Of a stretch of 64,000 nt of DNA, positions 9,127 through 51,459 are shown piece by piece. Origin of the DNA: Psammoneis japonica. Lineage: Eukaryota. How positions within the stretch are numbered: the first letter of the stretch is position 1; each line of letters starts with the position of its first letter. The stretch spans positions 62,001 to 126,000 of the forward strand of contig QPGO01000024.1 of assembly GCA_008632985.1 (NCBI GenBank), given 5' to 3'. The notes under the pieces are model-generated. The model ran no database searches. It was not told the DNA's origin and saw only the letters and a list, made by a program, of their open reading frames with translations. Position numbers and translations under genes: made by a program.

Positions 9127-9129
9127 CTC

Positions 9130-15872: not shown

Positions 15873-15895
15873 CCTCTCTCTCTCTCTCTCTCTCT
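15873..15895 (+). repeat. (TC)n microsatellite in a pyrimidine tract
   Basis: ctctctctctctctctctctc. Confidence 0.85.
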
Positions 15896-17696: not shown

Positions 17697-17850
17697 ACTG
17701 TATGCTTTACGTAAAAGTTAAAGAAGCTCGCAAGAAATAGGTACTGGAACGAGTAGGTAACCATTTTTCTCACTTTATGAAACACATCTTCATACGAGTT
17801 ATACTATCAATTCTTCTCTCAGCTCCAAAGCAAAACTTGATGAAAGTCAG

Positions 17851-19683: not shown

Positions 19684-20325
19684 TCATGGTGCGCGGTTTG
19701 TAGAGCCACGCACACATTGCTGCTCCTGCTCCGTCATGAAATCAAAATACCGATGTAACACAATGCTTGCAGCGACATAGATATTTAGACTTGCCGTTCC
19801 TCCACCATACTGCGGTATTCTCACAAATCCATCGCAAGAAGCCATTTGCTTTTCATTCAATCCTTGCCCTTCATTTCCAAAGACGAAGGCGACGGCATGG
19901 GTCGCATCAAAGATTTCTTCAATCAACTGAGACGAATCGTGAATTTCAACCCCAATTAATCGAACACCTAGTTCCTCTAAGTACGATACACAATCTTTCC
20001 ACTTTTCAAATCTTTGTATAGGTAAATGCCCATCTCGTACGTGTTGCTTGATTTTCCGAGGAATGTCGCGTCCGTTAGGGTCAAAGTCAAAAGAGGGTTG
20101 TCCCACCACCAACACCGCTTTGCATCCAAAGGCCGCTGCTGTCAGCAACAAGGACTTGACGTTTCGACTTTTCGATATATTGGTAATTACAAGGTACATT
20201 CCCATGGGCGAGGACGTTGCTTGTTGTGGAACGGGAGCTAGCGATTTGTTGGAATCTTTCGCGGTGTTAGGTTCAGCATGTTGGTCAGAAAAGTCTGGTG
20301 ACTCGTCGTTGAGTGTCTCGCTCAT
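19684..20325 (-). CDS. SpoU/TrmH-family RNA 2'-O-methyltransferase
   Basis: FVFGNEGQGL and VRIPQYGGGTASLNIYVAASIVL SPOUT motifs. Confidence 0.92.
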   Translation of the reverse strand: MSETLNDESPDFSDQHAEPNTAKDSNKSLAPVPQQATSSPMGMYLVITNISKSRNVKSLLLTAAAFGCKAVLVVGQPSFDFDPNGRDIPRKIKQHVRDGHLPIQRFEKWKDCVSYLEELGVRLIGVEIHDSSQLIEEIFDATHAVAFVFGNEGQGLNEKQMASCDGFVRIPQYGGGTASLNIYVAASIVLHRYFDFMTEQEQQCVRGSTNRAP

Positions 20326-20725
20326 TTTCGAATTTTGATAGCGATGTCGTCAATCAAGAGAATCTGTAAATAAAAGTTGGTTTAGGTTCGACTGGGAATG
20401 CTATTAATAGCTAAGACAGGCAGAGTCGTCACACAAGACACAAGGTAACCTTTCCGCAGTTTCAACTTTGGACTTTGCATGTTGCATGTTGCATGGCTGC
20501 ATGCTGCATGGTATGTGCGGATGACGGAAAGACTAAACAAGACTTATACGCGATCTCGAGCTCCAGAGCTCGTAAGGATTGAATTGTTAGCCTTTCACAC
20601 GATTTTTACGATTTTTCCAAAATTTTCAGGTTTTTATTTTTTTGTGGAAGCCAGATTTGCAACTTGCAACACAACACTCTTCTGTACTGCACGCAACATG
20701 CAACACGGTGAGGAGCGAACTGACC

Positions 20726-23248
20726 ATGACGACAACAGCGGTTATAGACATGTCAACCAAGATCGGGGGTCGGGTTGTAACTCCTGCGTTTCCGGTTGTG
20801 GACGGGTCCGAACCCACGGCCATCGAGCTCACGTTTCAGAAGACGCTGGACGCTTTTGTTCGGGACAACATCCCTCTCGAATCGACCGAAGGCATCCAGA
20901 CGCGTGAACGAGTGCTGAATCGCATGGGCGTCTTGTGTCGAGAATGGATTCGATCCGTCTGCTCCAAACGCGGCCTTCCTCCTGATGTTGTTGATAGTGC
21001 TGGTGGACAGCTCTTCACCAGTGGTAGTTATCGCCTAGGCGTGCACGAACCCGGAGCTGACATCGACACTATTCTAGTGGCTCCAAACATGTGCACTCGG
21101 CATGATTTCTTTGGGGCTGTGTTGGAAGAGCTCGAAGACGGGACTATTGTGAGAGATCCAGACTCGTTAGCGGAACGAATTAGAACCAACCCGGACGTAA
21201 CAAACTTTGTGCCGGTGGAGGGCGCTGCGGTCCCGATCCTCACATTTGATTGGGAGGGAATCAACATTGACTTGCTCTTTGCCAGACTCAACTCAGCCTC
21301 TGTTCCCGCCACTCTCGATATTGATGTGGACGCCGTCCTGGATGGTGTTGACAGTGCCACAGAAAAATCGCTGAACGGTCCTAGAGTAACAAATTTGATA
21401 GCGGCGCTTGCGTCCGGGACCGCCAAACGCTACGAAGCGTTTCTGACGGTTGTCCGATGCGTGCGTAAATGGGCAAAAGCGAGGGGGCTGTATTCCAACA
21501 AATTGGGATACTGGGGCGGAGTCAATATCAACATTGCCGTCGCTCTTGTCGTCCAACTTTATCCTGAAGCGTGTCCCGCGAGTCTGTTACGAAAGTTCTT
21601 TCTTGTCTTTAAGAGTTGGCGGTGGCCAAACCCTGTCATGCTCACCAAGCCGCATGACGCTGGGTACGGATTACCCGTCTGGAATGCTCAACACGTTCAC
21701 AACGCACGGCAGGTTGCACCCATTATTACACCTGCCTATCCTTCGATGAACGCGTCTCTCTCAATATCACGTCAGACGCTTCAAATCATGCATGAAGAGT
21801 TTTGTCGCGGACACGATATCATTGACAAAATATGGAAAAAACACCAAGCCAATCCTGAAGCCATTGACGAGGTTGTGTGGGATGAACTCTTTGAGCCGTC
21901 GGACTTTTTTATTTCATATCCGTATTATCTCAGCTTGTGCATCGTTGGGCCGACGCAAAAAGACACTCAAGCATGGTGCGGTTTTGTGGAGTCGCGTCTG
22001 CGAAAACTTGTCTCTGATATGCTTGCTCGATCTCTACCCATCAGCAAGATCCAGCTATGGCCGAAAAAGTTTGAAATATGCGTCGCCGACCGGTCCGCGC
22101 TCTTGACGGCTGCTCAGCGAGGAAACAGTGTCACGTACTTTGTGGGTTTCAAGGTTGACACCCTTCGCATGCGTGGAAACCAACTTAACATTGAGCTGCA
22201 GCTGCACAACTTTCGAGAGTGGGAGCTATCGAGATTTCAACCTTTAATTGCTGGGATGGATGTACTGTCGAAATGTTTCAAGGTGAAGGAGCTGCCTGGA
22301 GTTGTGTTTCAAGACATGTATGAAGGGGGCAAAGTTGCTGCGATGAAACGACGCCGGACTATTCGTGACGCAGATCCTAAGCGACAGGAGAAGAAGCGAC
22401 TGGCTCACTTGAAGGCTTTGAAAGAAAAGATGGACGCAATTAAAAGGAAAAAAGAAGAACAGGGTGGGGCTAAAGGCGATGATGAGACTGCACCAGAGGA
22501 AGGCAACGAACGAAAGAGAAAGAGAGGGGAGGGAACCCCTGACGAAGAGAAGGATTCAAAAATCATCAAGATTGAAAAACCAGATGTCAGCAACGTTGAC
22601 GAAAGCGAAGAAGCGGATCTTCTCGAGTGTGCTCTTGACACTATACAGCAAGATGACGATGCGGCCGGGGAAAAGAAAACACGAGAAGAAGCTGAAGCAG
22701 ATCGGAGAAAGCTACTTGCAGGAGAGTTACTTGAAGGGGAGGATCTGGTAGGTGGCAATATGGACGAAGATGATGCCGACTACATTGGACGTGATGGCGC
22801 TCGCCTCAGCTTCGTGGGAAATGTCGAACCGCAAGTACAGGAGGAAGCGAAACCTCACAAGAACATCCGTAGCCTTCCGGTGGGAGAAGCCGAAGCAGAA
22901 ATACTTCGAAAGATTGGTTGCGCAGTTGTGAGCGACGACGAAGTTACAACAATCGGAGGAAACATGGTCCTGCCCTGGCGGCGACCGGAAGTAACTGGTG
23001 TGGTGCAACAGGAAGGCAATGAGGGAAACGCTGCTCTTCCATCCATGCGAATCACATTCAAAACAAAGTTTGATATTGTTGAATTGGACGCCGCTGGACA
23101 CGTCATCGACAAAGGCGACGATGACTTCACTCCGGCTTTAAAATGGACTGGGCGCAAAGCAGGCTTCGAGTTTAAAAGAGGGGAGCGAGGACTTGGGTAC
23201 TATCGCACCGGGAAGAAAGTTGTGGTGCCTTCGAATACTGCGTACTAG
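20726..23248 (+). CDS. PAP: Canonical nuclear poly(A) polymerase
   Basis: FTSGSYRLGVHEPGADIDT, SLNGPRVT, KWAKARGLYSNKLGYWGG, PIITPAYPSMN, GFVESRLRKL. First in-frame ATG at 20726. Confidence 0.95.
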   Translation: MTTTAVIDMSTKIGGRVVTPAFPVVDGSEPTAIELTFQKTLDAFVRDNIPLESTEGIQTRERVLNRMGVLCREWIRSVCSKRGLPPDVVDSAGGQLFTSGSYRLGVHEPGADIDTILVAPNMCTRHDFFGAVLEELEDGTIVRDPDSLAERIRTNPDVTNFVPVEGAAVPILTFDWEGINIDLLFARLNSASVPATLDIDVDAVLDGVDSATEKSLNGPRVTNLIAALASGTAKRYEAFLTVVRCVRKWAKARGLYSNKLGYWGGVNINIAVALVVQLYPEACPASLLRKFFLVFKSWRWPNPVMLTKPHDAGYGLPVWNAQHVHNARQVAPIITPAYPSMNASLSISRQTLQIMHEEFCRGHDIIDKIWKKHQANPEAIDEVVWDELFEPSDFFISYPYYLSLCIVGPTQKDTQAWCGFVESRLRKLVSDMLARSLPISKIQLWPKKFEICVADRSALLTAAQRGNSVTYFVGFKVDTLRMRGNQLNIELQLHNFREWELSRFQPLIAGMDVLSKCFKVKELPGVVFQDMYEGGKVAAMKRRRTIRDADPKRQEKKRLAHLKALKEKMDAIKRKKEEQGGAKGDDETAPEEGNERKRKRGEGTPDEEKDSKIIKIEKPDVSNVDESEEADLLECALDTIQQDDDAAGEKKTREEAEADRRKLLAGELLEGEDLVGGNMDEDDADYIGRDGARLSFVGNVEPQVQEEAKPHKNIRSLPVGEAEAEILRKIGCAVVSDDEVTTIGGNMVLPWRRPEVTGVVQQEGNEGNAALPSMRITFKTKFDIVELDAAGHVIDKGDDDFTPALKWTGRKAGFEFKRGERGLGYYRTGKKVVVPSNTAY

Positions 23249-23895
23249 AGTAGAAGTAAGGTTGACCAAATAGCAAGCACGAAATGTGTTTGGCCGTTTG
23301 GCTTCGGGCATTAATTTGCAAAACCCAATTTTCAGACAGTAGCACCTTCCTTAAAAGAGTTAGTTAAGCGAACTGACATCGGTATGACCTCCCTGCTTCG
23401 TATGCAACTCGGAAGTAGTATTCTCTATCTACTATACAAGCTGCTCTTTATATGTTTCTTTTTTAAACTAAGTAGAGAGTTAAGGAGCCTAGAGTAGAAG
23501 TAATGAGAAACGTGGGGGGCAGCAGAAGGAGGCGTCGAGGCAGCTGTTTATCGGCTACGTATCGGAGCGGAGTTTTCGTGGCGGGCAAACGGGCGGGCTT
23601 TGCTTTTTGACGTGCCCTTCCTTAGTCCGTTGTTGGAAGGAGTTTTCGTGGTACAAGATTTACGTGATCCTACGTGAGTTTGATTTTTTGAATATCCGGG
23701 TCCGGGCAATGTAGAATGACAAAAACAAAAATGAGAGGTGAGGCCAACGAGGCAACTCACTTGAAACAGGACAGTCAGAGAAAGGGCTACCGCATGCAAC
23801 ATGTACATCCTGCAACCACCGGTAGTCTCTACTCTCTCGAGGTACCGTAACGCCCTTCTGGCTGCAAAACGCACTGTCTTGCCCTGCGCTGGAGT

Positions 23896-24936
23896 ATGAT
23901 CTCTTTTATTAAAGGGCTCATAATACTGGTTACTCGCGTCTGTTTTTTCTTTGCTACATCATCCCGCATAGCGTTGATTGATGCATTTTTCACAAGGCTT
24001 TCTCGAACTTGCGGAGTAGTTCCCAGACTAGAAAGTCCCTTGTTTCGCTTGTCGCTAGTTGAAAGAGACTTTGGCATGACAGAAGAAAATGGGCTAGGCA
24101 AGAGGCCTACACCAGAAAAAAGAATCGCATTTATTCGGCATGGACGAACGCACATGAACGAATATTTAGCTACTAATCGTTGGGGTGATCCAAGCTTTAC
24201 GGACGTGTTTCCAGATAATTTAAATGGAGAGAAATACAGAGACTCTCCCCTGTCGGCAAAAGGCATTGAACAGGCTCAGAGATTAGGTCAACTGCTTGAA
24301 GGACTTGGGATTGGCTGTCAAGAGGCACAAAGAGAATTATCACTTTCTCATACTGACACCACTGTCTTGAAAGAACTTGATTTGATTGTTGTGAGTCCAT
24401 TGACACGAGCCTTACAGACTGTGGAAATTGCGCTTCTGCCTTATGTTAGATCCACGGTGCAAAGCAAAGAGGAAATCGGTACACAGCTTTCCTTTGTCCC
24501 AGTTGTTGCCCATCCGTTCGCATCAGAGAGAGTTTATCTCATTTCTGACCACGGGAAACTACCAGGCGAACTTTCAAAATGTTTTGGTCACTTTGTAGAT
24601 TTCCAAACTGGCTTTCAACATATGGATAATTTGAACGAAGATTGGTGGTTCACTTTGGGTGGTGGAAAAAGACCTGTTCATGCCGATGACTACGTGGAAT
24701 GGCGACCGAACAATGAAAATCAAAGATACGCCTGTCCCGGAGAGCCATACCAGCAGTTCGAAGAAAGAATGATCGATCTGTACCGGTGGTTGGACAATCG
24801 GGAAGAACTGAACATTGCGCTTGTCTGTCATTGGGGAGTCCTCGAATGGCTGACTGGAGAAGATTTTGCGAACTGTGAGGTGCAAGTTATTCCTTTTCGC
24901 GACATAAGTACTAGGCTAGAAGAGAAAATGTTTTAA
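23896..24936 (+). CDS. Histidine phosphatase / phosphoglycerate mutase family protein (true start uncertain)
   Basis: FIRHG, DSPLSAKG, VSPLTRALQT, ALVCHWGV. Confidence 0.88.
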   Translation: MISFIKGLIILVTRVCFFFATSSRIALIDAFFTRLSRTCGVVPRLESPLFRLSLVERDFGMTEENGLGKRPTPEKRIAFIRHGRTHMNEYLATNRWGDPSFTDVFPDNLNGEKYRDSPLSAKGIEQAQRLGQLLEGLGIGCQEAQRELSLSHTDTTVLKELDLIVVSPLTRALQTVEIALLPYVRSTVQSKEEIGTQLSFVPVVAHPFASERVYLISDHGKLPGELSKCFGHFVDFQTGFQHMDNLNEDWWFTLGGGKRPVHADDYVEWRPNNENQRYACPGEPYQQFEERMIDLYRWLDNREELNIALVCHWGVLEWLTGEDFANCEVQVIPFRDISTRLEEKMF

Positions 24937-25293
24937 ATAATGTAGAATCAGCGTACCAGGTACGAGAAAGCTAGCTAATTTCTTAGAGATTACCATCGAC
25001 TATGCTACACTGACGACTCGCAACAATGATGATAGCAATGTCATTCAGCAAATGGCTACCCAACTATCTCCAACATATTGTACGCTACTCGTCGGTGAGC
25101 ACTTCTCCAGTTCATAGGCCTCCTACTCGTAGGCACCGCCGGAGCTGATCCAAAAGTGAATGAATGAAACTTCCCGTTCGTTTTGGATTCTGCCCTGTGT
25201 CAGCTATCTGTGTTCAGCATTCAGCATGTACGGTATGTGCTTTATTCGCTGTCAGTCTGTCCGACCCTGATCAAAAGTGAGGAAGGATGAGCG

Positions 25294-26706
25294 ATGATGG
25301 ATGATGAGCCGAAGCAAGTTGGAGCGGCGATGAGAGACGGCATGCAGAAGTTGTTTGGGCTCGACTGCTGCACCCTTCTAATTCTCTTGGAAATAACCTG
25401 GTGCATTACGCATTTCGCAGGAGCTTTTTCCATGTGTGCGAGTGACGTCCATGGATTTCGCATCCGCACCGTGACTGCTTTCGTTTTTTTGGAGGGGACT
25501 GACTTCTCTCCTTGCAATTCAGCTAGTGGATTTTCCTCCTTGATACAAGAAAAGGTCGATAAGTGCGCCAAGATATTGCGAGGAGTGGAAAATGAGCTTT
25601 CTACCTGTGGATATGAAGTACAGACGGTTCGAGTTGTTACAAATCCGTTCGGTGAATGGTTGTCGCGTGACGTTGGGTCAAGTTCCGACTCTCCTTTAGA
25701 GACGGCAAGAACGCGCCTTGGAATTCTCGACTCCGAATTGGCGAGCCATGACATCAGCTTCTGCGCACTGGGGCCTGCCATGAATGCGGAGGAAACAAAC
25801 TTGCTTTGTGCGGAAATTGTGCGTTCGTCACCGCGGTTCTCGTGTTCGGCGAGTGTTGCTCCAGCTGACGTACATGCTGCAACCGCCGCAGCCGAATGCA
25901 TTCTTCGCATTTCACGTTTAGGTGATCCCGAGCATGTTGCAATGGGACTGGGGAATTTCCGATTTTGTGCTGCTGCCTCTTGCAAGCCCTTTATACCGTT
26001 CTTTCCGGGAGCAAAGTCGGCTTCTATTGTCGATGCTTCACATGATGCGATTGGTATTGCCTTGGGTCTCGAGAACGGCGGACTAGCCAAGAATCTTATG
26101 AAGAAAACCCAGTCAGTGAAAAACATTGGAACCACCTTTAAGCGTGGTATAGAGGAGGCGCTTCTTCCGCTTCAGAAGATTTGCCGAAGCTTGTCAAAGG
26201 AACTTGACTTCCACTACATCGGGATCGACTCAAGTCTTAACCCATCTCTTGATGAGGGCGGCTCCGTTGCCGAAGCAATAGAGGAGCTTGTTGAGGTATC
26301 AGGTGGCTTTGGGGGACCAGGAACGATTGCAGCCGCTTCTGCGATTACCATGGCGCTTCAGTCATTAGCGATTGATCCCCTCACCGGCTACTGTGGATTG
26401 ATGCTTCCACTATGCGAGGACCGGAGACTAGCGCAACTGGCAAGCTGCGACAATTCTATTTTGAAGATATCCAATCTCTTGAGCATTAGCAGCGTCTGTG
26501 GCGTAGGAGTGGATACTGTTCCTGTCCCTGGTGACAGCACAGTGGAGGAGTTGACATCGTTGATTCTTGATGTTGCAGGTATTGCTGGTCGCTGGGACAA
26601 GAGTCTAAGCGTTCGTGTCTTTCCAGTTGTCGGCAGGACTGCTGGGGATTTCACCACCTTTGACTCGCCCTACATGTGCAACAGTCGAATACTACCAATT
26701 GACTAA
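25294..26706 (+). CDS. DUF711/UPF0210-family protein (start may be the Met of MCAS)
   Basis: RIRTVTAF, YEVQTVRVVTNPF, GIDSSLNP, GYCGLMLPLCED, SSVCGVGVDTVPVPGD. Confidence 0.8.
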   Translation: MMDDEPKQVGAAMRDGMQKLFGLDCCTLLILLEITWCITHFAGAFSMCASDVHGFRIRTVTAFVFLEGTDFSPCNSASGFSSLIQEKVDKCAKILRGVENELSTCGYEVQTVRVVTNPFGEWLSRDVGSSSDSPLETARTRLGILDSELASHDISFCALGPAMNAEETNLLCAEIVRSSPRFSCSASVAPADVHAATAAAECILRISRLGDPEHVAMGLGNFRFCAAASCKPFIPFFPGAKSASIVDASHDAIGIALGLENGGLAKNLMKKTQSVKNIGTTFKRGIEEALLPLQKICRSLSKELDFHYIGIDSSLNPSLDEGGSVAEAIEELVEVSGGFGGPGTIAAASAITMALQSLAIDPLTGYCGLMLPLCEDRRLAQLASCDNSILKISNLLSISSVCGVGVDTVPVPGDSTVEELTSLILDVAGIAGRWDKSLSVRVFPVVGRTAGDFTTFDSPYMCNSRILPID

Positions 26707-26815
26707 GTTGGCCGCTACGAATCTAGACAAGATAATCAAAACAAGAAAACTGTCGCTCTACAGTACAGTAAACTCCTTTCCCAATCAACACTTTTCGTCA
26801 TAGCGACTGCCATCG

Positions 26816-28681
26816 TCAGTTTTCAATGCAGTTGACGTTATGCAGTGAACCCACACGACGAACCAAGAAATGGAGCTCAGTGCTCCTCTTGAATAAATCA
26901 ACAAGATCCCGGAACCAATCTGGTTCATTACAAATAGAGCTTGTTGAAGGTGTGATCACGGATTCGCTTCTTTCGTTCTCGACTGTCAGAATCATGTCGC
27001 CACAGCAAAGACCAACGTTAGAGTTGTCTGCACCTATTGGCGCTCGCACTACTACACAATGGTCGCCTTCCTTGGAAAGCAAGACTCCCCATGACTTGCC
27101 AATTTCCCTTCGGAGACTTAACCTCATAATATCAGGCATTCCGTCAAACAGGATAGCTGTGTCGTTGGGCGGTACAGACACAATGTCCTCCATGGAATCA
27201 GCAGTTTTTGATTCCCACTCGCTTCCAATTCCATCCGTGGAAGCAAACGAGGATGAACGAGATCTTTTCCCCTCCTCGCCCCAGGTGGATTTCTTAGCTA
27301 TCCTGGGTCTCAGTCGCTGTCCCCGACGCTTAGCTCCCACTTCAAAGGTCGTGCCATTTCGATGATGGCGGAGCATTTTACGACCTGGGGCACTTTTCGC
27401 AAACTCCTTCCAGCAAACGTTTCGTTTCCGGAGCCTACCGATTGAGACTGCGTGTGGCAAGAGACTCGATTGGTCAAATCCCCCAATCTTGTTCAGAGCT
27501 CGCTTGTCAAATAACGCGTCTCTCACTGCTGCGTCCAATCTTGACATTGAAGAATGTGCATCCGAAGCTCGTTCTGACACGATCTCACTTTCTGTCTGCT
27601 CCCATGCAAACATGGCGTGACTTACATCAAACAAGAACTCTGAGAGTACACGCAAGAGCCGGTCCCGCTTCATGATGGATGACTTGTACCCCAGAAACCG
27701 ACGAAGCGCCAAATCGTCAAAACCGGAAGTTAGTTTTGCCGTCATCTGCACTGCCGAGTCCCTCAGTTTCGACTCGGACACAATTGAAACGACCAGCAAA
27801 GGAGGAAGGTGCAACCGCAGCAAAGGATACGAGCCTCCCACAGTGCGTTCCGAAAGATTCAAGAACAACGACAACTCGGGGGTTTCTTCCTCCTCACTTG
27901 AGCTGAGGAGATGACTAGCCACAACATTTGCTTCAGCGTCAGAGACTTTTCTTGGAGGCAGTGTGGAAGGCTTATCACTTTCTACATGAAAATGATTGGG
28001 TCCAACAACGAGGCTACCGCTATCAAGGAGAGAATTGTTCACAATAGCGTCAGCTAGATCTTCGGCGGACGCGTGGTTCTGTCTTGCGTTTCCTTCTTCT
28101 ACATGAGGTAGCTCTTCCACTGGAACTAGCGATTTCACATGGAGTTTTCTCTTCTTACTCGTGGTGATATTGCTAGAAGTGTGGGGCAATTTTCTTTTCT
28201 CGAACGCCTCATTACTCCTCATGAGAATGTCTGCCTCTCCAACGGAGGCAATATTATGAGCTGTAGGGTCCCGCGTCTCCTGTATGTCAGCTGCGATAGA
28301 TGTTGTACTTGATTTAGCATTGAGATCTAGCGTATTCCCGTCAAGCGTTCCATCCAGCACGAGTAGCTCTCTCGCGGCAGCTAGCAGCACATCTCGGTGC
28401 AAAGGAAAGTGAGGGTTAGGCACCGATGACCGAGAGAGGGCTGCAGAAGCCGGATATGCTAGCGGAGCCCAACCGTTTGATCTACAGCGACACGAAGAAG
28501 TAGTTTTGGTAACATCTCGTCGCTCCTCTCTGATCCTCCGGACATTGCTCGAACAGAAAGTCTCCGTCGGCAGTGTTCTTTCAACCATCCCCTCTACCGT
28601 ACGTAGAGTGTACTCCAGCTTCCAGCTTGTAGCTTCAGATCCTAGAGCAAGTATTATGAGTGCTTTCTTTTTGCAATTCAA
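26816..28681 (-). CDS. Hypothetical protein with a possible C-terminal PDZ-like domain
   Basis: 621-aa ORF of normal composition. C-terminal LSLRREIGKSWGVLL...GLCCGDMILTVEN...ELHFLVRR is PDZ-like. No ATG at the ORF start, so a 5' exon is probably missing. Confidence 0.65.
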   Translation of the reverse strand: MNCKKKALIILALGSEATSWKLEYTLRTVEGMVERTLPTETFCSSNVRRIREERRDVTKTTSSCRCRSNGWAPLAYPASAALSRSSVPNPHFPLHRDVLLAAARELLVLDGTLDGNTLDLNAKSSTTSIAADIQETRDPTAHNIASVGEADILMRSNEAFEKRKLPHTSSNITTSKKRKLHVKSLVPVEELPHVEEGNARQNHASAEDLADAIVNNSLLDSGSLVVGPNHFHVESDKPSTLPPRKVSDAEANVVASHLLSSSEEEETPELSLFLNLSERTVGGSYPLLRLHLPPLLVVSIVSESKLRDSAVQMTAKLTSGFDDLALRRFLGYKSSIMKRDRLLRVLSEFLFDVSHAMFAWEQTESEIVSERASDAHSSMSRLDAAVRDALFDKRALNKIGGFDQSSLLPHAVSIGRLRKRNVCWKEFAKSAPGRKMLRHHRNGTTFEVGAKRRGQRLRPRIAKKSTWGEEGKRSRSSSFASTDGIGSEWESKTADSMEDIVSVPPNDTAILFDGMPDIMRLSLRREIGKSWGVLLSKEGDHCVVVRAPIGADNSNVGLCCGDMILTVENERSESVITPSTSSICNEPDWFRDLVDLFKRSTELHFLVRRVGSLHNVNCIEN

Positions 28682-29019
28682 AAGCGTGTTTATACAATGA
28701 CAGGACCTCTCCTACTATTGTGCAATGCCCAATGCCAAAGTGAAATGCGCCCACGAGTGATGCTGACAAAAAAATTCTGGTCGGCTTCGTGTCATTTAGT
28801 AACCTTAGGCCCTACGTAGCTACTGGTACTGATACTGCGTAGAGCAGTTCGGCTCGGCAGCTGTTCGCGCGCACAATGCCCCCCGGGACTGATTTAACGC
28901 GAACAAAATGACCTGAGTACAGTACAGCATGGTCTTCTTCATAGAGATTATACATACGGAGATCGTACAGCGCTCGTGGTATGTCAACGTGGCGCGACTC
29001 AGCTCACAAAATTCGGCGC

Positions 29020-29386
29020 TGCACTATGCTCGAAGAACGAGTGTAAACGAAAGTAGAATAGTGTACGAAAAGTGGAAATTATAAGATTGAATTTTGCTCT
29101 GTGATTTTTGGTTTCTCCGAACGAGTTCTCAATGGCCTAAAGCTTCTGTACTGCTTCTACAGACAAAAGGCCTTTCGGAGAATATATTCGTGACAACAGA
29201 TTGTCCGGATACGATTGCTATTGACACGTAAGATGTCAACATCGTCAATCGATCGTATTTGCAATTCTCGACATCCGATCAACTCTGTGTGATCGTTCTG
29301 TCCTTTGTACGCATCCACGACTGTGGTACGATTGACATATAAATAATATATAATCATAAATATGTATATAACAGTCGCATACTGCA
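29020..29386 (-). repeat. 3' LTR of the Gypsy element (TpA-retaining copy)
   Basis: Ungapped match to 33341-33707; terminal IR tgcactatgc...gcatactgca. Confidence 0.95.
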
Positions 29387-32300
29387 TTCGCCTCCCTAAT
29401 TGCACATTAGAGTCATTTGTAAGTGGATTATTCGACGGACATCGACAGTGTCAATAATGTCTCCACTTTCACTGTATTGTGCCATTAGCAATGACTGTTG
29501 TTGTTTTGTATAGGCAATATAGAGCCGTTCCAATTTCCGAATGTCTTTTGAGAGTGACATTGTTTGTTTCTCACTTAACATGTATATATATAGTATTACG
29601 TCGAGTATTCTCATTGACGTTCTTGTTGATATGAACACAAGGACTAATTGTCCTGGAGTAAGTGTTTTTCCTGATATCGATTGTACATGGCATCGTGCCC
29701 AGTACTTAATGTACGCTCTTAATTATGGCGTTCACTTACTTACTTGTGGATTTCATGTAGTTTGGCGGGCTTACTTTATATGCCATATTGCTCTGCTGCA
29801 CTACCACGTTTCATAAGTAATAATAAACGATGGTCAAAGATATTATGACCATTTCGTCTTGATAATCAATCCTGTGATGGTTATGAATTCCATTATGGAT
29901 TTTTTTTTTTGTACTTCAACCATCTATCAGTTGGATTTTAATCGTTATTTGGACGTTTCTTTCTGACATACCGGTGTTATTTTGTCATTCCGAAGGCACT
30001 GGTTTCGTGCACTAAGTGGATAAATGTCCATTTTTCTTTTCTTTTTCTAGATCTTTGGCACATCTCGTGTGTCGACATGATGTATATTTTAATGTCTTGC
30101 CTCGTACATTGTACAATACAACCGTACGGGTGTTGTGAGATTGTCTTTTGCCAGTGTGAAGTGGATACGTATAATGTATACCAATCTGTCACTGTTTTTT
30201 CCTAAATCGTCCTTTAAAAAGGCGATTTTATCCTTGTGACATGAGCATTTTTCGATCTCGCTCGCCTCCACGAAAAGTAAGTGTTCGTATGATATGTCGC
30301 GTCCGACAATTTGGAGGGAATGTCTTTATCCCGTTTTAACGGTAGGACATTGTCGTAGGATTCAATTTTCTATAGTAAGTCGGCTGATCGCGTCTATCGC
30401 GACGATGTTCGCCTTGCCCTCGTTGTATTCTAATTCGGGACTGAAGTTGTCAACGTATGACTTTGTCCGTTGTGTCTTATGATCCGTATATGTATAAATC
30501 TGTTGGCCAAACAGTATATTTCGGAATTTTATAAGTGTTTTCACTGTGGACAGAAGTTCTTTTTTCCGTTGTAACGTATAATATTGAAATCCGTGTATGA
30601 TAACAATATAGTTTTTGATTTGATACGCTCCATATTTTCGGAGACTTTTCGTTCCGTACTTGTACTTTTGCCGTTTGACCTTTATTGAGGTGAATTTGGC
30701 TAGTATTGTACAGGAGATCGTTGAGACTACGTGTCTCGATAATAGTAACGTATGACAACGAGATGTCGTAGTGTTCTTTACGTTTTTCTCGTGTTGCGAT
30801 TGCTTGAATCGCCTCCATTTTCTTTGCAATCGATTGCATGTCGTTACGTATGGAAGTCTTGATAGTTTATTTCAAGTTAAATAGTGAAGGACTTTTGTTG
30901 TTAACCTTCTAAGCGACTGTTCTAGTCGTTTGAATGCCGCATTAAGCTGTTGCTTGCACAGGTGATATTTTGAAGTTACTTTTGTCAGGCACAAACGATC
31001 ACACACAGTCGTTCTGACAACTTCAAACCTGTTATGAGTTCACTCAAGTGTTGCACAAAAATATCTGGGGCTCTATAGATTCTCATTGGAAGTCCACAGC
31101 ACTCATTTTCTCCCCACGGCATGATTTTCGTGTGAGCACGACGTGTGCTTTTTTTTGTTTGACATGGTGGCATTCCATGTTTGAATCAAATAGATCACAC
31201 ACATGAAACGTTCTTGCTTCAACAGCATTTCCTGAATATTGGGCAAAGGATACACCACCTGTATGAACCTCACACTAAGCTTCTGAGTGTCGGATGCGGT
31301 CGAACTCGACCTGTTTTCTTTGGACAATGAGTCTCAGAGCGACTTGTTCAGAGCAATTTCATTCTCAAGACTTCAATCTTTCATAACAGGTCAAACTCCT
31401 TTTGATTGGACGCCTCCAAAGACTGTGATGGGAGAAGGTTCTCACGCGTCGTGGAATCGCGTCAGATTTTCCACGATGAGATCCACTGATGCTTCCCACA
31501 CATTCGTCTGAGGAACTTTTCAAAACGATTTCAACCTCTTGAGAAGAAGATTGAGTTGGTTGTGTTCATTTGGGTTAGATGCATCGCCGTAGTTGTCACT
31601 TGATTAAGATCGATGGCGTGACAATGTGAGTCGAGGACCATTGGTTCCGTTGTCAACTCTGTTCACGGCGTCACATTTTTCAATGTGATCGGTTTTCAGC
31701 TTGAAAACATCGGCATCGAAGAGTGCACGAACATTCTTCATAAGGCAATTGCTTCTTCCCATTAGATTTCTGCATTTGCGTAGTCCAATGTGACTTGCAG
31801 GACTGGACATTAAGTCGCGTCCCATGATCATGTCATTTGAATGTCAGTGTGCCTTAAATTTCGCACAGTGAGAACTGAATTCGGTGTTTGCTGTCAGTCG
31901 TAAAGAGCTCACCCTTGGTTTTCCAAGTTTTTGGTGGCGGATTCTTGTGTTCTCAACTTTCGCACGAATTTGCGCAAAATTGTGGTTGACGATGTTCCGT
32001 TGTCGACAGGAACACGTGGGTGCTTTTTTCTCTCCTTTCCCAAGGAAGTGTTCATGTGAATGATGACTCCTGGACTGGTGTGAATTATTTCTGCCTTTTT
32101 TCTAGGCTTCCCAATGTCCAGCAAAGCACATGATTCGTGAACAGACCAAAATTGTTCTTCGGATTCAGTCTGGATCATCCGATCAAATTGGCACTTTTCT
32201 TCACTGAGGGTGTCAGAATCTGATTCTTTGCCCTTGTGCTCTTTTTCTTTGTTCAAGGAACTCGCTTTGAGCATTTTTTGAACCGCCTGATCAATCATGA

Positions 32301-33340
32301 CGTTCATCTCCTTTTTTGCGAGCGGCATTTTCGTTGTCGCGATGCGACCGCGTGCGATTGCCATTTGAACGGCGCATTTTTGGGTCTCTTTCAGAGTCAC
32401 CCTTGCACTCTTTTGCCAGTTCATTTTTAGAATGGCTTCAATCCGTGATGCAGGTGTTCTTTTTTCAAAGACAAGACCTTGCATTCACTTTGGATTGTTC
32501 TGGCACCACACAGGAGACCATTTTTGGAACCAAATTTGGAACCTTTTTTATTTTGGAACCAACTGCGCTGTCAGAGCCTGAGTTGACATGTTTTTTCGTC
32601 ACGGACGTCATGAACGACCTTTGGATGACTCAAAACTTAATCAGCTCATCAAGGATGAGTTGCAACAGTTGATTGTTTTGGACAGTAGACTGATGCTGCC
32701 ATCCTTGCGGTGCGAGTGACAGCTGATGAATCAGCGCTCGGTTTCCCGCTAGATTCGACTTAGAATCCATCTGAGGGTCGCATGGACTCTCATCATTGAC
32801 CTCTTGGGTCTAACAGAGGCTTTCTTGCTGTCAAGCAGCTCTGGTTTCTTCAGATCGTCTTGAAAATAACAACTCTGATTCTGAAGTGCAATTCTTGGAA
32901 AGACATGAGATGTGAGACTCTTGAGGTGCTTTCCAACGGTTCCATCTTGCTCTTGGACTCGAGGCTCGTTGATTCGGTCTCCAAAAACTCTCCAACAGTC
33001 TCTCCTTGCACACCAGACGCATTTCTCGGACCTGATCGACTCGGAACTTGCATTCTCTGCAACCATGACTTGGTGTAGATTTTTTGATGATGCGGTGTGC
33101 TTGAGAGCCCTTGATCCTTGGGTGCTTGGAATGGACCGCACTGGAGCGAATCCTCTTGTCTGGCAGACGAAAAACAGCGTTCCATCTTGAGGCACTGCTC
33201 GGCTTGAGCTTCTTCCGCTCGGAAATCGATTCCAGCAGAACTGGTGCGATTCGTTCCTGTTCATAGAAGAATTTGCAAAGGCACATTAGTTAAAATTTTC
33301 ATTTTCCGTGCTTTTTACCTTCTGTGGTGTGCACACACAA

Positions 33341-33707
33341 TGCACTGTGCTCGAAGAACGAGTGCAAACGAAAGTAGAATGGTGCACGAAAAGTGGAAAT
33401 TATAAGATTGAATTTTGCTCTGTGATTTTTGGTTTCTCCGAACGAGTTCTCAATGGCCTAAAGCTTCTGCACTGCTTCTACAGACAAAAGGCCTTTCGGA
33501 GAATGTGTTCGTGACAACAGATTGTCCGGGTACGATTGCTGTTGACACGCAAGATGTCAACATCATCAATCGATCGTATTTGCAATTCTCGACATCCGAT
33601 CAACTCTGTGTGATCGTTCTGTCCTTTGTACGCATCCACGACTGTGGTGCGATTGACACACAAATGACGTGCAATCATAAATGTGCACACAACAGTCGCA
33701 TGCTGCA
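33341..33707 (-). repeat. 5' LTR of the Gypsy element (TpA-mutated copy)
   Basis: Ungapped match to 29020-29386 with about 24 transitions. Confidence 0.95.
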
Positions 33708-33711
33708 GCGC

Positions 33712-36700
33712 CGCCGCCGCAAACAAAGAGTCGTCAGAGATTCAGTCGCGAGCTTTTGGCAGCATCATGGCATCACCATCCTTGTTTTTCGTCTGAGTTC
33801 TTCACGCAACCACAGTGGCAAAACTAATCTATAAATGGCGGCTGTACAAAACTGTCTTTGACATTTCAAAATGTGAGCTCCATCCAGTTGTGAAACATGG
33901 TGTGCAGTCAAAAGGGTCTCTCTCTCTCGTTGCCAAATGTCGCGCTTGTCTTCCGATGCGGTGGAGGGGTGCGCACTGGTGGCAGAAAAACATGTGCTGA
34001 TAGACCAGCTCGAAAATCATTGAAGTGAAGGAGAAGAGCATGATTGATGATGTGCGAGCACATCGAACCCAATCAGCAGCTCGTGCTTTGCTCTCTCCTC
34101 CTCAGTGACGGCTGTTCCGACAAAGCTGTTCTCCATCTCAGGCTTCCTTTTTGACCAGCATCCACAGTCCGCAACAAGCAAGCTTGAATGATGCATCTTT
34201 TTGCAAGCATTGAATGACAATTTCCTTGGCAACATTTGCGCGTGGTCAGCTCTTCCAAAGAGACTTGGATTGCTTGACGGGCACTAAAAAAGTGAGCTGA
34301 AGAAATGCAAAATGCAGTTTGGAGCCTGCACACAGTGCACAACAAGGGCAAAAGAGGTGAGTGGAAGAAAACGCAAACTCAAGCTTTGGCTGACCCTTCG
34401 ATTTGAACTCATGTTGAGAAGCTTGTGGAAGCAACTCCTTGTCAGACCGCAACATTGACCAGTGCCTGGGGGGCAGAGTCAAAACAGAGTGTCTTGCATC
34501 AGAGGGAAAGCAGGTGGAGCAAATGTCACTGGCAGTGGGTGGATTTGTGCTGATCAACATTTTGCAGCATCAAAAAGCCACAAAGCAGATGGCAAAAGAC
34601 CAGGACATCGAATGGCATCATCAAGTGCAACGAGCAGTCAATGAAATGCCGCGCCGCAAGAAATTCAATGGTCGTGGGCTTCACTTTGCCCTTGCCTTCC
34701 ACCCTGAGTCACCCTCATTGTAAGGTTTGAACACTGCAATGGCCGCCCGGTGGCGATCTTTCAAAAACATGGTTCAGCGACACCTTCAACGACTCCACAA
34801 GCCACGAAGGCTCCAAGGATGAGACTGGAAGCACATGAGGGTTCCCCATTCTTGTCAAACCAACGACATCAAGTGGATCAGGTTTGACAAGTCTACAAAG
34901 TGATGGAGACAACAAAACACAAATGTCTGGATGTGGCAAGACCATGAATGAGACCGACCAGTGAATTTCTTGAGTTGGACACAACAGGGGTGGACCATCT
35001 GTGTGGTTTCAAGCAGCCGTCGCAACAAAAGAAAGCATTTTTGGTGTGAGCAAAGCCAATTCAGCAAAAGACTCTTGCGACAAACGGCAAAATGAAAAAC
35101 TCACTTAAGAATGTTTCAAGAAAGTTCAGTCATGCAGAAAACAGTTGTTGGTGACTGGTCGTCAAAAATGGTGACCGGTGATGAGAAATTTGAAGGCAAC
35201 ATGCACACTCTCACGACCTGAACAACAAATGAATGAAAACTGTCCCATGAAAACCACTTCTAGATGAATGCAGGCAACATTTTCTCCCAAAAGCTCAAGA
35301 GGCAACCCAATCTTGGAGACTTTTTGATGCAGAATTGGGCAGCATGAGCACTGGTGCCAGGTGCAATGTGTGGTGTTTGCGCAGCAGAGCAATGCCCCAA
35401 CATCCATGAGCTCAGTGGAGGGACACCAGTTGGGAAGCAGCAGAGGATGTGGGAACGTGAATGTTGTCTGATGCCATTTTGCTGATTCTCTTGATGAACA
35501 TTGCTCTGGGATGCATCTTGCATCCTTTTTCACTCTTTTCAGCGTGGGCACATGAGATGTGACACGGAATGTCCGCCATTCTTGTTGGAAGATGTGCAGC
35601 CTCACTCCGCATTTGTGCAGATGGCAGAACAATTTTGCCAGTGATGACAAGTGCCGCCACTGCTCACCCATTGCAAAACAACTGCAAGTGGCTGCTGCTG
35701 CTGCAGTGTTGTCCACAAGCCATTTTCCAAATGAGAGGCACCTTCCACCGTGCATCAATGTCCACAAGAATTTGGCAATGCTGCTCAACCACAGCAACGC
35801 TTCAAGAAAACGAGCAAAAGGTGGTTGGAACAAGCCTTGGGAAGTGGACAATTTGATGCTGTTGCGGGTGACAATGCCGGTGGCAGCATTGTTTCCACTC
35901 AAACCCAAGATCACTCGGGTCATGTTGCTTCTCAACAACATGAGCAATTCCAGTTGCATGGCATCAAAAAGAAGGCTTTCAAAATGCACAATTCATCCAT
36001 GGGAAGTGATGAGGAGCTGCAGAACCAAGTCACATCCAAATGCAGGTCCAAGCACCAAATCAATCAGCTGGTCCAGAGTGCCATCAATTTGGAGCTGCAA
36101 TGAGCCCAACAAGCCTGACTTTTCAAGCAAAATTGTCAGGCCAATCCAAAATGAAAATGCAGCTCAGATGTGACACAAAGCGGGGTGCTCTCAGGGGATG
36201 GATTTGCCCAAAGAAAGGCTGGCTTGATTTTGACATGATTCACAACGTTTTCTGCACAACAATGGAGATGACAAATGGAGTGTCATTGGAGTGCAAATCA
36301 CAGCTTTGCATTCCATGTTTGCAATGCTTTGACAGAGAGAATCATGCCAGAACCAAAACAAAGCACCTTGAGCAGCACCATTGTTTCTCTGCTTCTCCCA
36401 GAAGAGCGCGCCAATGCTGCCAGATGACTTCTTGAATTCAGACTGCTTTCTGTTCCTTTCACTGTCCTTGGTGCTTTTCTTGGGTGCTTTGGTGCCTCTT
36501 CAAGATGAGCTGGAGGAAGAGACGCCTTTTGATTGTTGCCAGAAGAATCAAAAGGTTTGTCGCTGCCTGGAAAAGAAGAGAAAAATGTCCACATTGTGGT
36601 GAGCTCTCACGCATTGCTCAAGCCATCATCTTGTCATTGACAGAGGTGCACTGTCCTCATCATAAAAGGGTTCTCTTCATTTCTGCCACCAGCTTTGCAC

Positions 36701-39700
36701 TTTCTTGCATCTTCCAATTGGGTCAATGCTGCTTGCAGCTTGCTGATCAAAGTCTCTGCGATGATGCTCATTGTGTCATTCTGGACAGCACTGAATGACA
36801 GCATTTTGTCTTCTTGAACTTCCCAAGTCCTGCAAGTTTGTTTGACTTTTGGCACTCAGGCAGAGAATTGCACAAGTGGCATCATGCGTGTCTGCATTTC
36901 CCATCACCCCAAAGTCTTTCTGGGTGTGAACAGCTGGATCATTTTTTTCTTGTTCACCACATTGCTCCTTTCCAGTTTCACGGTCAACAAAGCCAGAAGG
37001 CTTGCTCCTCTGTGTTGCCATTGTTTCATGATTGCAGCAGCAGGTCTGGCCAGCATGGACATCAACTGCAGCCTTCCACAGAGACCAACTCTTTTTTGCT
37101 TTGTCAACTTCTGCTCCTGACAAACAGTTTCTTCATTGGAGGGACAGTCAGTTTCTGCAGAATCTTTCTTCAACTGCTTCAACGGGCAAAAGGGTGATGA
37201 AATTCCACTCCCCATCAATTTGACCAGTTGATGCTGCAAGAACCACTCATTTTGGAAGCAGCACCTTGCAGCACCATGGAGCTGCCAGAAACAACCAGCG
37301 GCACTGTGGTGTGCAGGCTTCCCAGATGCAGTGACTCAAAACGGCACTCGCTGCCTCTGCCAGCTGGCACTGATGAGCCCAAGTGGGGGCCCAGAGGCAA
37401 CCTCCTCACTCAAACTCTTGCCACCATGAATGCCTTGACTGGTGCATGGGAGTCAAAAGTGGGTGGGATTGATGGCATTTGTTCATTCCATGCTTCCCCA
37501 GCAGGTGGTTCTTCAACAAAACAAAAAGAAACTCAGGGATGCCAGCAAACAAAGTGGTCTCAAGGTGAAATTTGAGTCATTCACCAAAGCTTGCACCGCC
37601 ATTTGCCAGCACCAACTGTGCAGAAAATGATGATTGAATCATTGACAACCAAGCACAGGAGACCATTGCAGCAGAAAAATGGGCACAGAAAGCTGGGGAG
37701 ACAAAACGTTGACATGTGTCAAGATGAATGTTTTCAACCCGCTCTTGGGAGGAATTCCAAATGACAACAATGCAGTCAAAAGCAGCAACTGTCATGACAA
37801 AACACTTTAAATTGCCAAGAAAAGCAAAGTGCTGCTCTCTTCACACCAAAGAAAGTTTGCAAATTGCTCTCAGGCTGCAGCAAAGAGGACTTGCTGCACT
37901 GTGGGGGCATGAAGCCAGAGATTCACAGTTGGAATTTTTGTGAACAAGTGCATGTGATCCTCATAAACTGAGAACAATGGGGCTGCTTTTCTTTCTTTGC
38001 AGTGGCCGTTCCAAGATGTCAATGGCCCTGTAGATGCTCCAAGAGGCTTGTGCACTGTTGGGGGCCAGCACTGCGCAAGTGATCTTGCTGACCTTGGCAT
38101 TGACACAGACAAATGAATTGATGGCTGCATCGATCCAAGATGCCACTCTGGAACCCTGAAAAAGCTGTTGCTGAGTTCGACATGAGTCGTGAAATGGCTG
38201 TGGATTGGATCAAGATGTTCAAATTGTGAGGCCAACCTTGCCATCAGACAACATGACTCAAGCTGCAATGAAAGAGCTTTGGCATGAGCTCACACATGTG
38301 ATGAGTTGCCATTGATGCCATCAGAAGAGCTGTTGGAACAATGCACTGACACCGGTCTCATGCGCTGCACATGCCAGACACGCCACCAGCATCATGCATG
38401 ATGCTGCCGTTCATGTGCCACAGCAAAGCACCGAGGAACAGCATTGGGTTTTCCTCCTGCACCAAACACAAAGGACTGTTCCAAGCATTGGTCAGTCATT
38501 GCAAACTTTTCTACGCAAGCACCCACTGGCAACCCCTGCGTGTGTTTCTGCGCGTGCTCTCGTGCTATGTCGCCTTTTCAGACGGCGTTTTGCTGATCCC
38601 TGTCACCTTTTGCCCCTTCCCATTGTGCACCTTTTATCTCCATGATGTCAACAATTTTCAGTGGAAACGACTGGCATCGACACTTTGTGGTTCGCATGCT
38701 TGTTGTCTCATTTGGCAATTTTTTGCGGATTCGGTGCGATTTCTACACAGAATCCAGTGCAAATTCTACGCACTTCAGAAACACACACCGACAGTCATTG
38801 CGTCTCCGATGCGATCAACTTCCATCCTCACCCGAAAGCCCCCAACAATTTCTTTTACTTCCACTGGCTGCTCAAGTTCTTCACCTCATGTGGTGAAAGT
38901 GCTGTCCCTGTTGTGGCGCCTGCGAGTGTTCACATGGACAAACCATCGGCATCATCTGACGACCGTCCATTTGCTGCGCGGATCGGCTTTTCTACGCAAG
39001 ATTCAGCATCAATTCTACGTGAGAGTGACATTTCTTCCGACGACCTTCTCGTCACATCACCAAGACTTCCCACTTCATCCTTGCAAGTCACGAACATCCC
39101 CTTTTCTGCTTGCTGGCCTGCCAAGATCACTGTTCTGAGCAGTGAACTGCACATTGTTGTTCTGGTTCATGCAACTGTGAAATTCAGTCTTTGTTGAAGA
39201 CAAGATTCTCCCTCAGAGGCAAAGATTTTCTCTCAGAGCATGCGCTGACTTTGAATTCTCTGCTCAACTTGATTGTCCTTTGCTGTGGCAGTTTGGGTGC
39301 CTTGCATCCTCTCCAAAAGAAAGCAATGATCTCATTCTGGTGCAATTTTTCCTTGACCTTTTGTCACTGGTGCGCGTCGCTGTAAAGCGGCGCTTTGACC
39401 GACTGATTGCACGACATTCTGCCGCACCATCCTCGCAGGGTGCACTGGAAGTGTGGGTCAGCCGGCGCCGGTGTTGCTGGGCAAAGGTGCGACAGCACTT
39501 AAAACCGGGTTTTGGTTTTTTTTGGTCAGTCATTGCAAGGCTGCAAGGCATGGAGGAGCCCTGATGATTGACTCGCGAAGCTCGGCTGAAGGGTTCATGA
39601 TCAGAGCGCAAAATTGAATGTGGCCAAAGAGTGGGCATTCTCCATTTTGCATTGTGTGGCATTGCACTGCACTGCATTGTGTGGCACTGCATTGCATGGC

Positions 39701-40170
39701 ATGGCATTGTTGCTTGCCGCTGCATTGTGTGATGACATGTTGTGTCCCAAGCACACTGACACCCCCACGAGCAACACGCCAATGAACAACGTCTTCTGTG
39801 CTGCCTTCTTGATCCACTCCACACGTGCAATTTAAGAGTGCATTGTCCAATTCATTGTCGGCAAAACATTCTTTCCGGTGTTGGGGCAGTTCCAAGGGTC
39901 AAGCTCAAAGCTCAAAGACATTTTTGTTTCTGCTTTTGCGCTTCGGCACTGGCTCAGAAACCCAATCGCCATTCACGCTTGTCACAGTCGATGATGAAGC
40001 AAACACAACATGGCAAATTAAGCACCAGTGCCGGCAGGAGAGTGGGAGAGACAGCGAGAGCATTGATGCAGTGTGCTGCGGTTGAAGTGAACCATTGGAT
40101 CTTTTGACCGCTGGGGCAGGGAACGACGAGTCCCGCGAACGACAAGGAACCCACGCTGAGTCTTGGATTC
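33712..40170. other. Decayed TpA-depleted repeat/TE block
   Basis: TG/CA-rich with rare TA; no assignable protein. Confidence 0.6.
39648..39712 (+). repeat. Degenerate pentanucleotide microsatellite
   Basis: tgcat tgtgt ggcat tgcac tgcac tgcat tgtgt ggcac tgcat tgcat ggcat ggcat. Confidence 0.8.
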
Positions 40171-40537
40171 CTACATTGCGCATCTGTGAGGGGACAAAGT
40201 TAATCTGTCAGGGATACCTATTCTCCCCTCGGATGGTTTTCCAAGTTCGGGGTCCCACTCCGTACGGTACGATCTAAGCTGCCGAGAACAGAAGTGGGTC
40301 GCTTGTCAACTACGTACAATCGTATAAGTGACTATAAGTATACGGTAGACAAGGCGTTTGACTCCCCTCTTCGGTGACAAGGGGGGCGCTGGGCATTACC
40401 GAGAGCGCTGAATTCTCCCTTATCGAGGATCAAAGTTCCGATTGATTCTCAAGTGGTACAATATAGCCTTCTCACCGACCTCTTGGCATGGTCAACTCTT
40501 CCAAAGACATTTGGCAACAAAAACTCTATAATTAGCT

Positions 40538-51450: not shown

Positions 51451-51459
51451 GCACACACT

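Follow-up and report, generated by a model that had tools for sequence, protein, structure and literature searches.

The 64-kb window analysed here (64,000 nucleotides of Psammoneis japonica, contig QPGO01000024.1, positions 62,001 to 126,000 of the forward strand) contains, at window positions 29020–33707, a long terminal repeat (LTR) retrotransposon of which one LTR has lost most of its TpA dinucleotides (hereafter TA) and the other none. The LTRs are 367-bp direct repeats located at 29020–29386 (left) and 33341–33707 (right); a repeat search, MAFFT and a position-by-position script agree on a gapless alignment, and both copies start and end with TGCA. The insertion is bordered by a 4-bp target-site duplication, GCGC, read in the printed flanks at 29016–29019 and 33708–33711. 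On the minus strand the left LTR is directly adjoined by a purine-rich tract, AGGGAGGCGAA, and the same strand carries a weak RT_RNaseH match at 30362–30871 (Pfam E 9e-4; 19.8 bits compared with a curated cut-off of 24.8). Because of the tract and this minus-strand hint, the element is oriented from right to left, such that the left LTR (minus strand) is its 3′ LTR and the mutated right LTR (minus strand) its 5′ LTR. The hallmarks of an LTR retrotransposon are thus present, i.e. direct terminal repeats of the form TG...CA, a target duplication, and a purine tract at the 3′ LTR. None of the ten open reading frames (ORFs) and three read-through frames of the element contains a Pfam domain above the cut-off, gag and pol domains (reverse transcriptase, RNase H, integrase) included, its proteins have no homologues among longer proteins, and 148 pattern matches in metagenome contigs yielded no confirmed relative; as an LTR element it is non-autonomous or else very divergent. 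The element belongs to a highly multicopy family: 5582 contigs of one sequencing run (X1) were placed on 29387–40000 at a likeness of at least 80%, with a summed word depth, which is not a copy number, of ~10,000 over the internal part and ~71,000 in the LTR bin, compared with 60–80 in unique flank.

The two LTRs differ at 24 positions, all of them transitions (left to right, 12 A>G, 11 T>C and one G>A), and 22 of these positions sit inside TA dinucleotides of the left LTR (21 dinucleotides). The left LTR has 30 TA (GC 0.384), of which 21 are changed on the right, to TG (10), CA (10) or CG (1); the right LTR keeps nine (GC 0.444) and has no TA lacking a left counterpart. Losses of TA therefore number 21 in the right LTR and zero in the left (binomial p 1e-6). 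Counted by base, 22 of 60 TA positions are changed, compared with 2 of 307 other positions (Fisher p 2.5e-17), the two non-TA differences being GA/GG at 29209 and CG/CA at 29244. The script thus arrives at the tally made by hand in an earlier note on this sequence (24 gapless transition differences, 22 of them in left-LTR TA, plus the GA/GG and CG/CA extras), and the printed LTR ends agree with its observation that the terminal inverted repeat is better preserved on the left (9/10) than on the right (7/10). Its claim of change far faster than background is likewise supported by the loss of 21/30 TA sites against 2/307 other positions; the per-base ratio of TA to background is roughly 140 (22/60 versus ~1/307 per LTR), with wide margins, the background consisting of two events. 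The right LTR has lost 1 of 21 CpG relative to the left, compared with 21 of 30 TpA, hence within a single LTR the TpA process is much faster than CpG decay. Amongst the sites changed are those of a TA-rich patch (29338–29370 in intact-copy coordinates), which is destroyed in the mutated 5′ LTR; its loss would plausibly silence the promoter of that LTR.

A single template gives rise to both LTRs of an insertion. For this reason, and because the target duplication is intact, the LTR differences arose in the chromosome, i.e. after insertion and at the level of DNA, as the earlier note had proposed. The two strands are used equally, with 10 TG and 10 CA outcomes along the LTR, the order of which gives 13 runs by hand count where ~11 are expected, with no sign of strand clustering. 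These observations bear on the possibility that ADAR-like A>I editing of the transcript, or reverse-transcriptase errors, produced the changes before integration. ADAR enzymes do prefer a U before the edited A (as stated in the discussion of bioRxiv 10.64898/2026.01.13.699255), but editing at that stage would show in both LTRs, given the one shared template, whilst the equal involvement of the strands without strand runs and the presence of the same footprint in non-transposing flanking DNA also argue against it; we consider this explanation hardly credible.

The element is a mosaic, in which the state of each LTR extends into the adjacent internal part. Counts of TA per 200 bp are 12–19 over 29001–31000 and 0–6 over 31001–34200, with a sharp switch at ~31000. 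The unmutated internal part (29387–31000, minus strand; 12–19 TA per 200 bp) has an observed/expected (o/e) TA ratio of 0.8–0.95 and a GC content of 0.33–0.43, and the hypermutated internal part (31001–33340, minus strand; 0–5 TA per 200 bp) has a TA o/e of 0.09–0.28, raised CA+TG and a GC content of 0.41–0.52. The mutated 2.7 kb (31001–33707, including the right LTR) adjoins a TA-free flank, with an intermediate TA level at 33708–33900, whilst the untouched 2 kb of the element faces the upstream region of a host ORF (26816–28711). A mosaic of this sort might have been made by gene conversion acting on products of the same mutational process, either by copying of the right 2.7 kb from a mutated paralogue or by overwriting of the left 2 kb by an unmutated one. 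The sharpness of the switch would be accounted for in this way, and potential donors abound, for paralogues are very many and some carry mutations at sites that are also changed here (the family is mixed at 33541 and 33550). Nevertheless, the mutated part is precisely that which touches the pre-existing TA-free flank, the level of TA in 33708–33900 is intermediate, the target duplication is intact, and non-TA differences between the LTRs number only two; we therefore regard gene conversion as an improbable origin of the mosaic.

The direction of change was read from the family, taking the depth-weighted majority of the X1 contigs as its state; six of the 24 differing LTR sites are among the 40 variant places listed of a total of 1168. 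The left-LTR letter holds 89% of the depth at 33381, 94% at 33385, 91% at 33530, 64% at 33541, 78% at 33565 (the CpG site) and 38% at 33550. The family majority therefore has the left-LTR state at 5/6 of the differing sites listed, and at 4/5 of the TA sites listed, which supports the earlier view of the left LTR as ancestral; the family consensus bearing TG or CA, which that note had named as the sign of a gain of TA on the left, was looked for and is not what these five sites carry. With the left copy taken as ancestral, 23 of the 24 LTR differences have A or T on the ancestral copy and G or C on the derived copy. At two further positions, 33404 and 33410, both LTRs share a state unlike the family majority, which fits a source copy already carrying some changes.

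A second, independent view of polarity comes from a Copia-type polyprotein remnant at 9149–14064 (minus strand; RVT_2, E 4e-25), in which tyrosines have been replaced by cysteine or histidine. Over ~1650 codons its tblastn pieces are 53–73% identical to five metagenome polyproteins of 1845–1924 aa. In an alignment with 30 intact homologues there are 28 conserved Tyr columns; the remnant keeps Tyr in seven of these, and has Cys in seven and His in nine, whilst other conserved residues are kept in 449 of 544 columns (Tyr versus other, Fisher p 2e-10). The reverse change, to Tyr, occurs at none of the conserved Cys (5 columns) or His (25 columns). Comparison by tblastn with a single homologue, P0049, gives the same picture, with 64 Tyr of which 12 are kept, 27 are Cys and 11 are His, and with zero reverse changes. 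A single transition at TpA is exactly what turns TAY into TGY or CAY.

These two lines of evidence bear on the opposite reading of the LTR pair, according to which C>T change of the kind made by repeat-induced point mutation (RIP) acted on an ancestral right LTR, so that the left LTR and the left half of the element gained TA from CpA and TpG. The left half is AT-rich (GC 0.33–0.43), and its indices (TA/AT 0.7–1.0; (CA+TG)/(AC+GT) 0.86–1.1) are near the RIP index thresholds. However, the family majority holds the TA state at four of the five TA sites listed, the Tyr to Cys/His change in the Copia remnant is one-way only, and the right-hand state runs on into a flank with 5% of the expected TA. 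Furthermore, every Tyr codon contains TA, hence TA-free DNA cannot have been the original state of a coding transposon, and the TA-free blocks are not ancestral. Taken together, the family majority, the Copia tyrosines and the logic of the Tyr codon lead us to reject a RIP-like gain of TA by the left copy, to which we assign only a very small residual probability. The change is from TpA to TpG or CpA.

The Copia remnant lies in one of several regions of the window from which TA is almost absent. A dinucleotide scan and segmentation of the window with a two-state hidden Markov model (HMM) delineate five such blocks, at 1–1700 (at the window edge; TA o/e 0.09), 3201–10600 (including the 3′ part of the Copia element; TA o/e 0.07, CpG o/e 0.39), 11001–16000 (including the 5′ part of the Copia element; TA o/e 0.09), 33901–40200 (an older block beside the mutated LTR; 23 TA in 6.3 kb, o/e 0.05, CpG o/e 0.42, CA and TG o/e 1.7) and 50001–58400 (26 TA in 8.4 kb, o/e 0.05, CpG o/e 0.17). 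Together these make up 28.8 kb, nearly half of the window, and contain 114 TA compared with ~1792 expected from base composition; across them TA o/e is 0.05–0.09, CA and TG o/e 1.4–1.9 and CpG o/e 0.17–0.74. Over the 64 1-kb windows, the relative abundance (rho) of TA correlates negatively with that of CA+TG (r -0.87) and positively with that of CpG (r +0.78). The region 35401–36600, read directly, is complex sequence practically without TA, and parts of the block 33901–40200 are repeated in the genome, as judged from contig depths and contigs 98–99% identical to it.

Coding signals within the blocks are few. The Copia reverse transcriptase is the only Pfam-positive ORF within the low-TA segments; apart from the ORF that carries it, none of 109 ORFs of at least 90 aa in these blocks has a Pfam match above cut-off, and tblastn of the window with the five Copia homologues gave a match to the single Copia element only and none in the other TA-free blocks. 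Although dead, the Copia element keeps an open frame of 1246 codons (9685–13425, minus strand); over the ~1650 codons the tblastn pieces have only 1–2 stops each, and the frame shifts once, near 10126. Long spurious ORFs are to be found in the islands because erasure of TA also removes TAA and TAG.

Several further features of the blocks were observed. On either side of the Copia remnant lies a copy of a 151-bp repeat (8851–9001 and 14061–14211; 92.7% identity), inverted rather than direct in orientation. In the core of this repeat the two copies differ mostly by changes at two neighbouring bases, TG in one copy standing against CA in the other (5 swaps); such swaps would be expected from independent conversion of the same ancestral pyrimidine–purine (YR) site in two copies. 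Patches of near-normal TA are present at 10601–11000, within the Copia element, and at 1701–3200, between erased blocks, thus erasure is non-uniform within an island. Inside the fully erased block 50001–58400 is a direct repeat pair (51518–51754 and 56666–56906; 80% identical and ~5.1 kb apart), the differences of which include four CA/TG swaps and two CG/TG changes, and which may represent the LTRs of an old element. Short local direct duplications occur at or near block borders (40391–40513/40596–40722, 78%; 14346–14460/14683–14775, 74%). No (AC)n microsatellites of note, as might arise as a by-product of TA erasure, were found in the window with Tandem Repeats Finder.

The host genes serve as a control. 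A block of host genes at 16001–29019 holds seven intron-free ORFs, six with Pfam matches, and the HMM segment in which it lies (16001–31900, including the unmutated left part of the element) has a TA o/e of ~0.6 and a CpG o/e of ~1.0. All 11 host-like ORFs of the window are in normal segments with these same values, and ten have Pfam matches (alpha/beta hydrolase, TPT transporter, SpoU methylase, poly(A) polymerase, histidine phosphatase, DUF711, MFS_5, LRR protein, amine oxidase and OB-fold protein); the eleventh, ORF 26816–28711 (631 aa), lacks a Pfam match and has distant homologues only, the best at 45% identity. The change is confined to repeat domains, as had been claimed, in that the low-TA blocks are 28.8 kb of transposon islands and the host-like ORFs are all outside them. 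The host genes are single uninterrupted ORFs that span whole Pfam profiles, with the sole exception of the MFS_5 transporter gene (41050–42829, minus strand), which is split in three adjacent ORFs (41050–41502, 41503–42183 and 42176–42829); the split may be due to a stop codon within the frame, to a shift of frame or to introns of very small length. The intergenic spacers between host genes contain short GCATG-rich tandem arrays at 19129–19397 and 20475–20511, with units GCAT, ATGCATGCATCGC and TTGCATG, which may be a promoter or terminator motif. No tRNA genes were found in the 64-kb window.

The contigs of run X1 also inform on whether the TA-free state is real or arises from assembly or base-calling, for example because long-read base-calling takes modified TpA adenines for G. 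If both strands were miscalled, a mixture of TG and CA would result, and the window is not identical to the contigs, with X1 containing 0.73 of the sampled window words and differing from the window by ~1%. On the other hand, X1 contigs with a k-mer depth of ~60, which are therefore from accurate reads, match the TA-free flank at 98–99% identity (7–11 differences per 478–914 bases). Independent miscalls on the two strands would, moreover, make many CG, yet CG is depleted in the blocks and 1 of the 21 changed LTR sites is CG. Finally, mutation-accumulation lines of the alga Bigelowiella natans, sequenced with Illumina technology, are described in the main text of a preprint as gaining the same spectrum de novo (Mettrop et al., bioRxiv 10.64898/2026.01.13.699255). 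An artefact thus appears very improbable as the source of the pattern. In the unique TA-free flank (33819–37617) X1 and the window differ by TA/CA alternatives at 33819, 33845 and 35261 and by many CG/TG alternatives, hence both decay processes look polymorphic within the organism; at flank places covered by a single X1 contig, the alternative letter only is present. The sequencing runs listed as containing the window include no RNA run, from which nothing follows about expression.

We conclude that post-insertion hypermutation of transposon islands from TpA to TpG or CpA, at the level of DNA and with host genes spared, is the best explanation of the window, with a probability of about 0.85. 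Several points weigh against it. Polarity was read at 6 of the 24 LTR sites, at one of which (33550) the left state holds 38% of the depth, and site-by-site polarity covers the LTR sites rather than the internal part. Tyr depletion is seen in 0 of 134 metagenomic Copia homologues of at least 700 aa (minimum Tyr content 3.03%, compared with 0.80% in the window), and there is consequently no sign that the process is common among the top-scoring relatives. The three sequencing runs share one sample and one study, and perhaps the source of the assembly, thus their independence is not clear. In addition, the sharp border at 31000 could also be explained by gene conversion, and a thymine chemistry acting at TpA would leave an identical footprint.

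The sequence of events that we would propose under post-insertion TpA hypermutation is as follows. An LTR retroelement of a very abundant family would have inserted, with duplication of GCGC, at the border of an old island of transposons, beside the upstream region of a host gene. After insertion, ~70–80% of TpA in the 2.7 kb adjoining the island (31001–33707) would have been converted to TpG or CpA, with the other 2 kb and its LTR left untouched; the same process would have removed ~94% of the expected TpA from the 28.8 kb of islands, again with host genes spared. A slower decay of CpG to TpG or CpA proceeds in the same blocks and, since it accompanies the loss of TpA there, both palindromic YR dinucleotides funnel into TG and CA.

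With respect to mechanism, our tentative preference, should the above explanation be correct, is for an adenine deaminase of the ADAT2/TadA type acting on DNA in silenced, probably cytosine-methylated chromatin. Such an enzyme would convert the A of 5′-TpA-3′ on either strand to hypoxanthine, which would be copied as G. The natural tRNA substrate of ADAT/TadA enzymes has a U before the edited A (U33–A34), a preference shared by ADAR. The sequence itself shows the direction of change, its dinucleotide context, the equal involvement of the two strands, its timing relative to insertion and its restriction to domains; the enzyme, its targeting by chromatin and a defensive role are inferred. The same phenomenon may also have another chemical basis, in which a TET/JBP enzyme turns thymine at TpA into a modified base (5-hydroxymethyluracil (5hmU) or a J-like base) that pairs wrongly with G, or in which TpA-specific adenine methylation is faultily processed. 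The symmetrical footprint is compatible with this, as T>C is not separable from A>G on the opposite strand, and 5hmU favours TpA in dinoflagellates. Against it, the sole published candidate, in the preprint, is an ADAT2 homologue, and we view these other chemistries as unlikely.

Known forms of genome-defence mutagenesis (RIP, APOBEC, decay of 5-methylcytosine) run C>T. A chromosomal A:T>G:C process at one dinucleotide has been reported once, in the 2026 preprint, and the kind of process has been known since then; the present case is a more extreme instance. What is new here is the LTR pair as a clock, the near-total erasure of TA from transposon islands and the decay of CpG in the same blocks. 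With one LTR mutated and one spared beside completed islands, the locus constitutes a natural experiment that gives polarity, relative rate and domain borders without the need for culture. It suggests that integrated viruses are not the only targets of the process, which would also act on ordinary retrotransposons and probably does so here in another organism. The enzyme responsible could represent an adenine base editor of DNA that occurs in nature, and hence a possible tool. Erased islands are devoid of Tyr codons and of TAA and TAG, so that they present long spurious ORFs and are missed by domain searches. It is possible, at somewhat less than even odds, that a second, unrelated lineage uses a natural DNA adenine editor, targeted to chromatin domains, as the main long-term fate of its transposon islands. 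Such an editor would act in concert with cytosine methylation, TpA and CpG alike being turned into TpG or CpA, the border of its domain would advance kilobases into new insertions, and the enzyme would constitute a natural base editor specific to TpA in double-stranded chromosomal DNA. If this were the case, genome defence by this process would be widespread among eukaryotes and not the oddity of one alga.

Amongst the characterised systems close to the present case is fungal RIP. RIP converts CpA to TpA and leaves AT-rich DNA full of stop codons. It resembles the process described here in being a dinucleotide-specific, DNA-level transition hypermutation of transposons on both strands, after which repeat islands next to intact genes bear a strong footprint in their dinucleotides. 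It differs in that TpA is here destroyed, GC rises and TAA and TAG stops are erased, and in that RIP mutates both duplicates, whereas one LTR of the pair is here untouched (21 versus 0 TA losses). The term 'reverse RIP' used in the earlier note is therefore apt for the direction of change, but the homology sensing of repeats that goes with it is not supported by anything found here. Deamination of 5-methylcytosine shares with the present case the loss of CpG in the same blocks and the products TpG and CpA, and the LTR pair has one difference of this type among its 24; however, the loss of TpA and the rise in GC are not explained by CpG decay. ADAR and APOBEC also represent deaminase-driven hypermutation of mobile elements, and ADAR shares the preference for U/T before A, but they act prior to integration on RNA or single-stranded cDNA, with a strand bias, and their changes are copied to both LTRs. 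APOBEC, in addition, gives C>T.

Full-text literature searches returned no report of TpA>TpG/CpA hypermutation of repeats other than that of Mettrop et al. (bioRxiv 10.64898/2026.01.13.699255). According to the main text of that preprint, 231 of 302 nuclear mutations in the B. natans mutation-accumulation lines fell in integrated giant-virus and virophage regions; 230 of these 231 were A>G or T>C, and every GC-biased one was on TpA. The rate there is given as ~6e-7 per site per generation, ~1000 times background, in some lines only; the occurrence in culture is de novo and episodic, at about 1e-7 to 1e-6 per site per generation. The B. natans genome is reported to have 124 clusters of TpA-poor, CpA+TpG-rich windows, its TpA-poor genes are enriched in RT (reverse transcriptase) and DDE domains, and an ADAT2-like adenine deaminase is proposed (same preprint). 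The earlier note had taken the process in our window to be one that was uncharacterised, and in this it has been overtaken, since the TpA-specific A:T>G:C hypermutation that Mettrop et al. describe is the same. The B. natans data were obtained in real time, and here we have the footprint in the sequence alone. The targets differ, being single-copy viral insertions in B. natans, as far as the preprint describes them, and here an LTR retroelement pair together with whole transposon islands. The host genes differ as well, those of the window being intron-free ORFs and those of B. natans having a mean of 8 introns of 182 bp per gene (PMC13746701 Table 1), a contrast that suggests a different organism. 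CpG decay takes place in the same blocks here, and the terms CpG, LTR and retrotransposon are absent from the main text of the preprint. Erasure has gone further in our window (TA o/e 0.05–0.09 over 28.8 kb), and 21 of the 64 1-kb windows, in four runs, pass the low-TpA/high-CpA+TpG thresholds of the preprint, which by construction select ≤5% of the B. natans genome. In its essentials the likeness is close: changes are almost exclusively A>G or T>C, they occur at TpA and give TpG or CpA according to strand, they are confined to foreign or repeat DNA at a rate orders of magnitude above background, and over the long term they leave 1-kb windows depleted of TpA and enriched in CpA+TpG, grouped in clusters. 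The signature in our window matches that of B. natans, and under the best explanation the two processes are of one kind.

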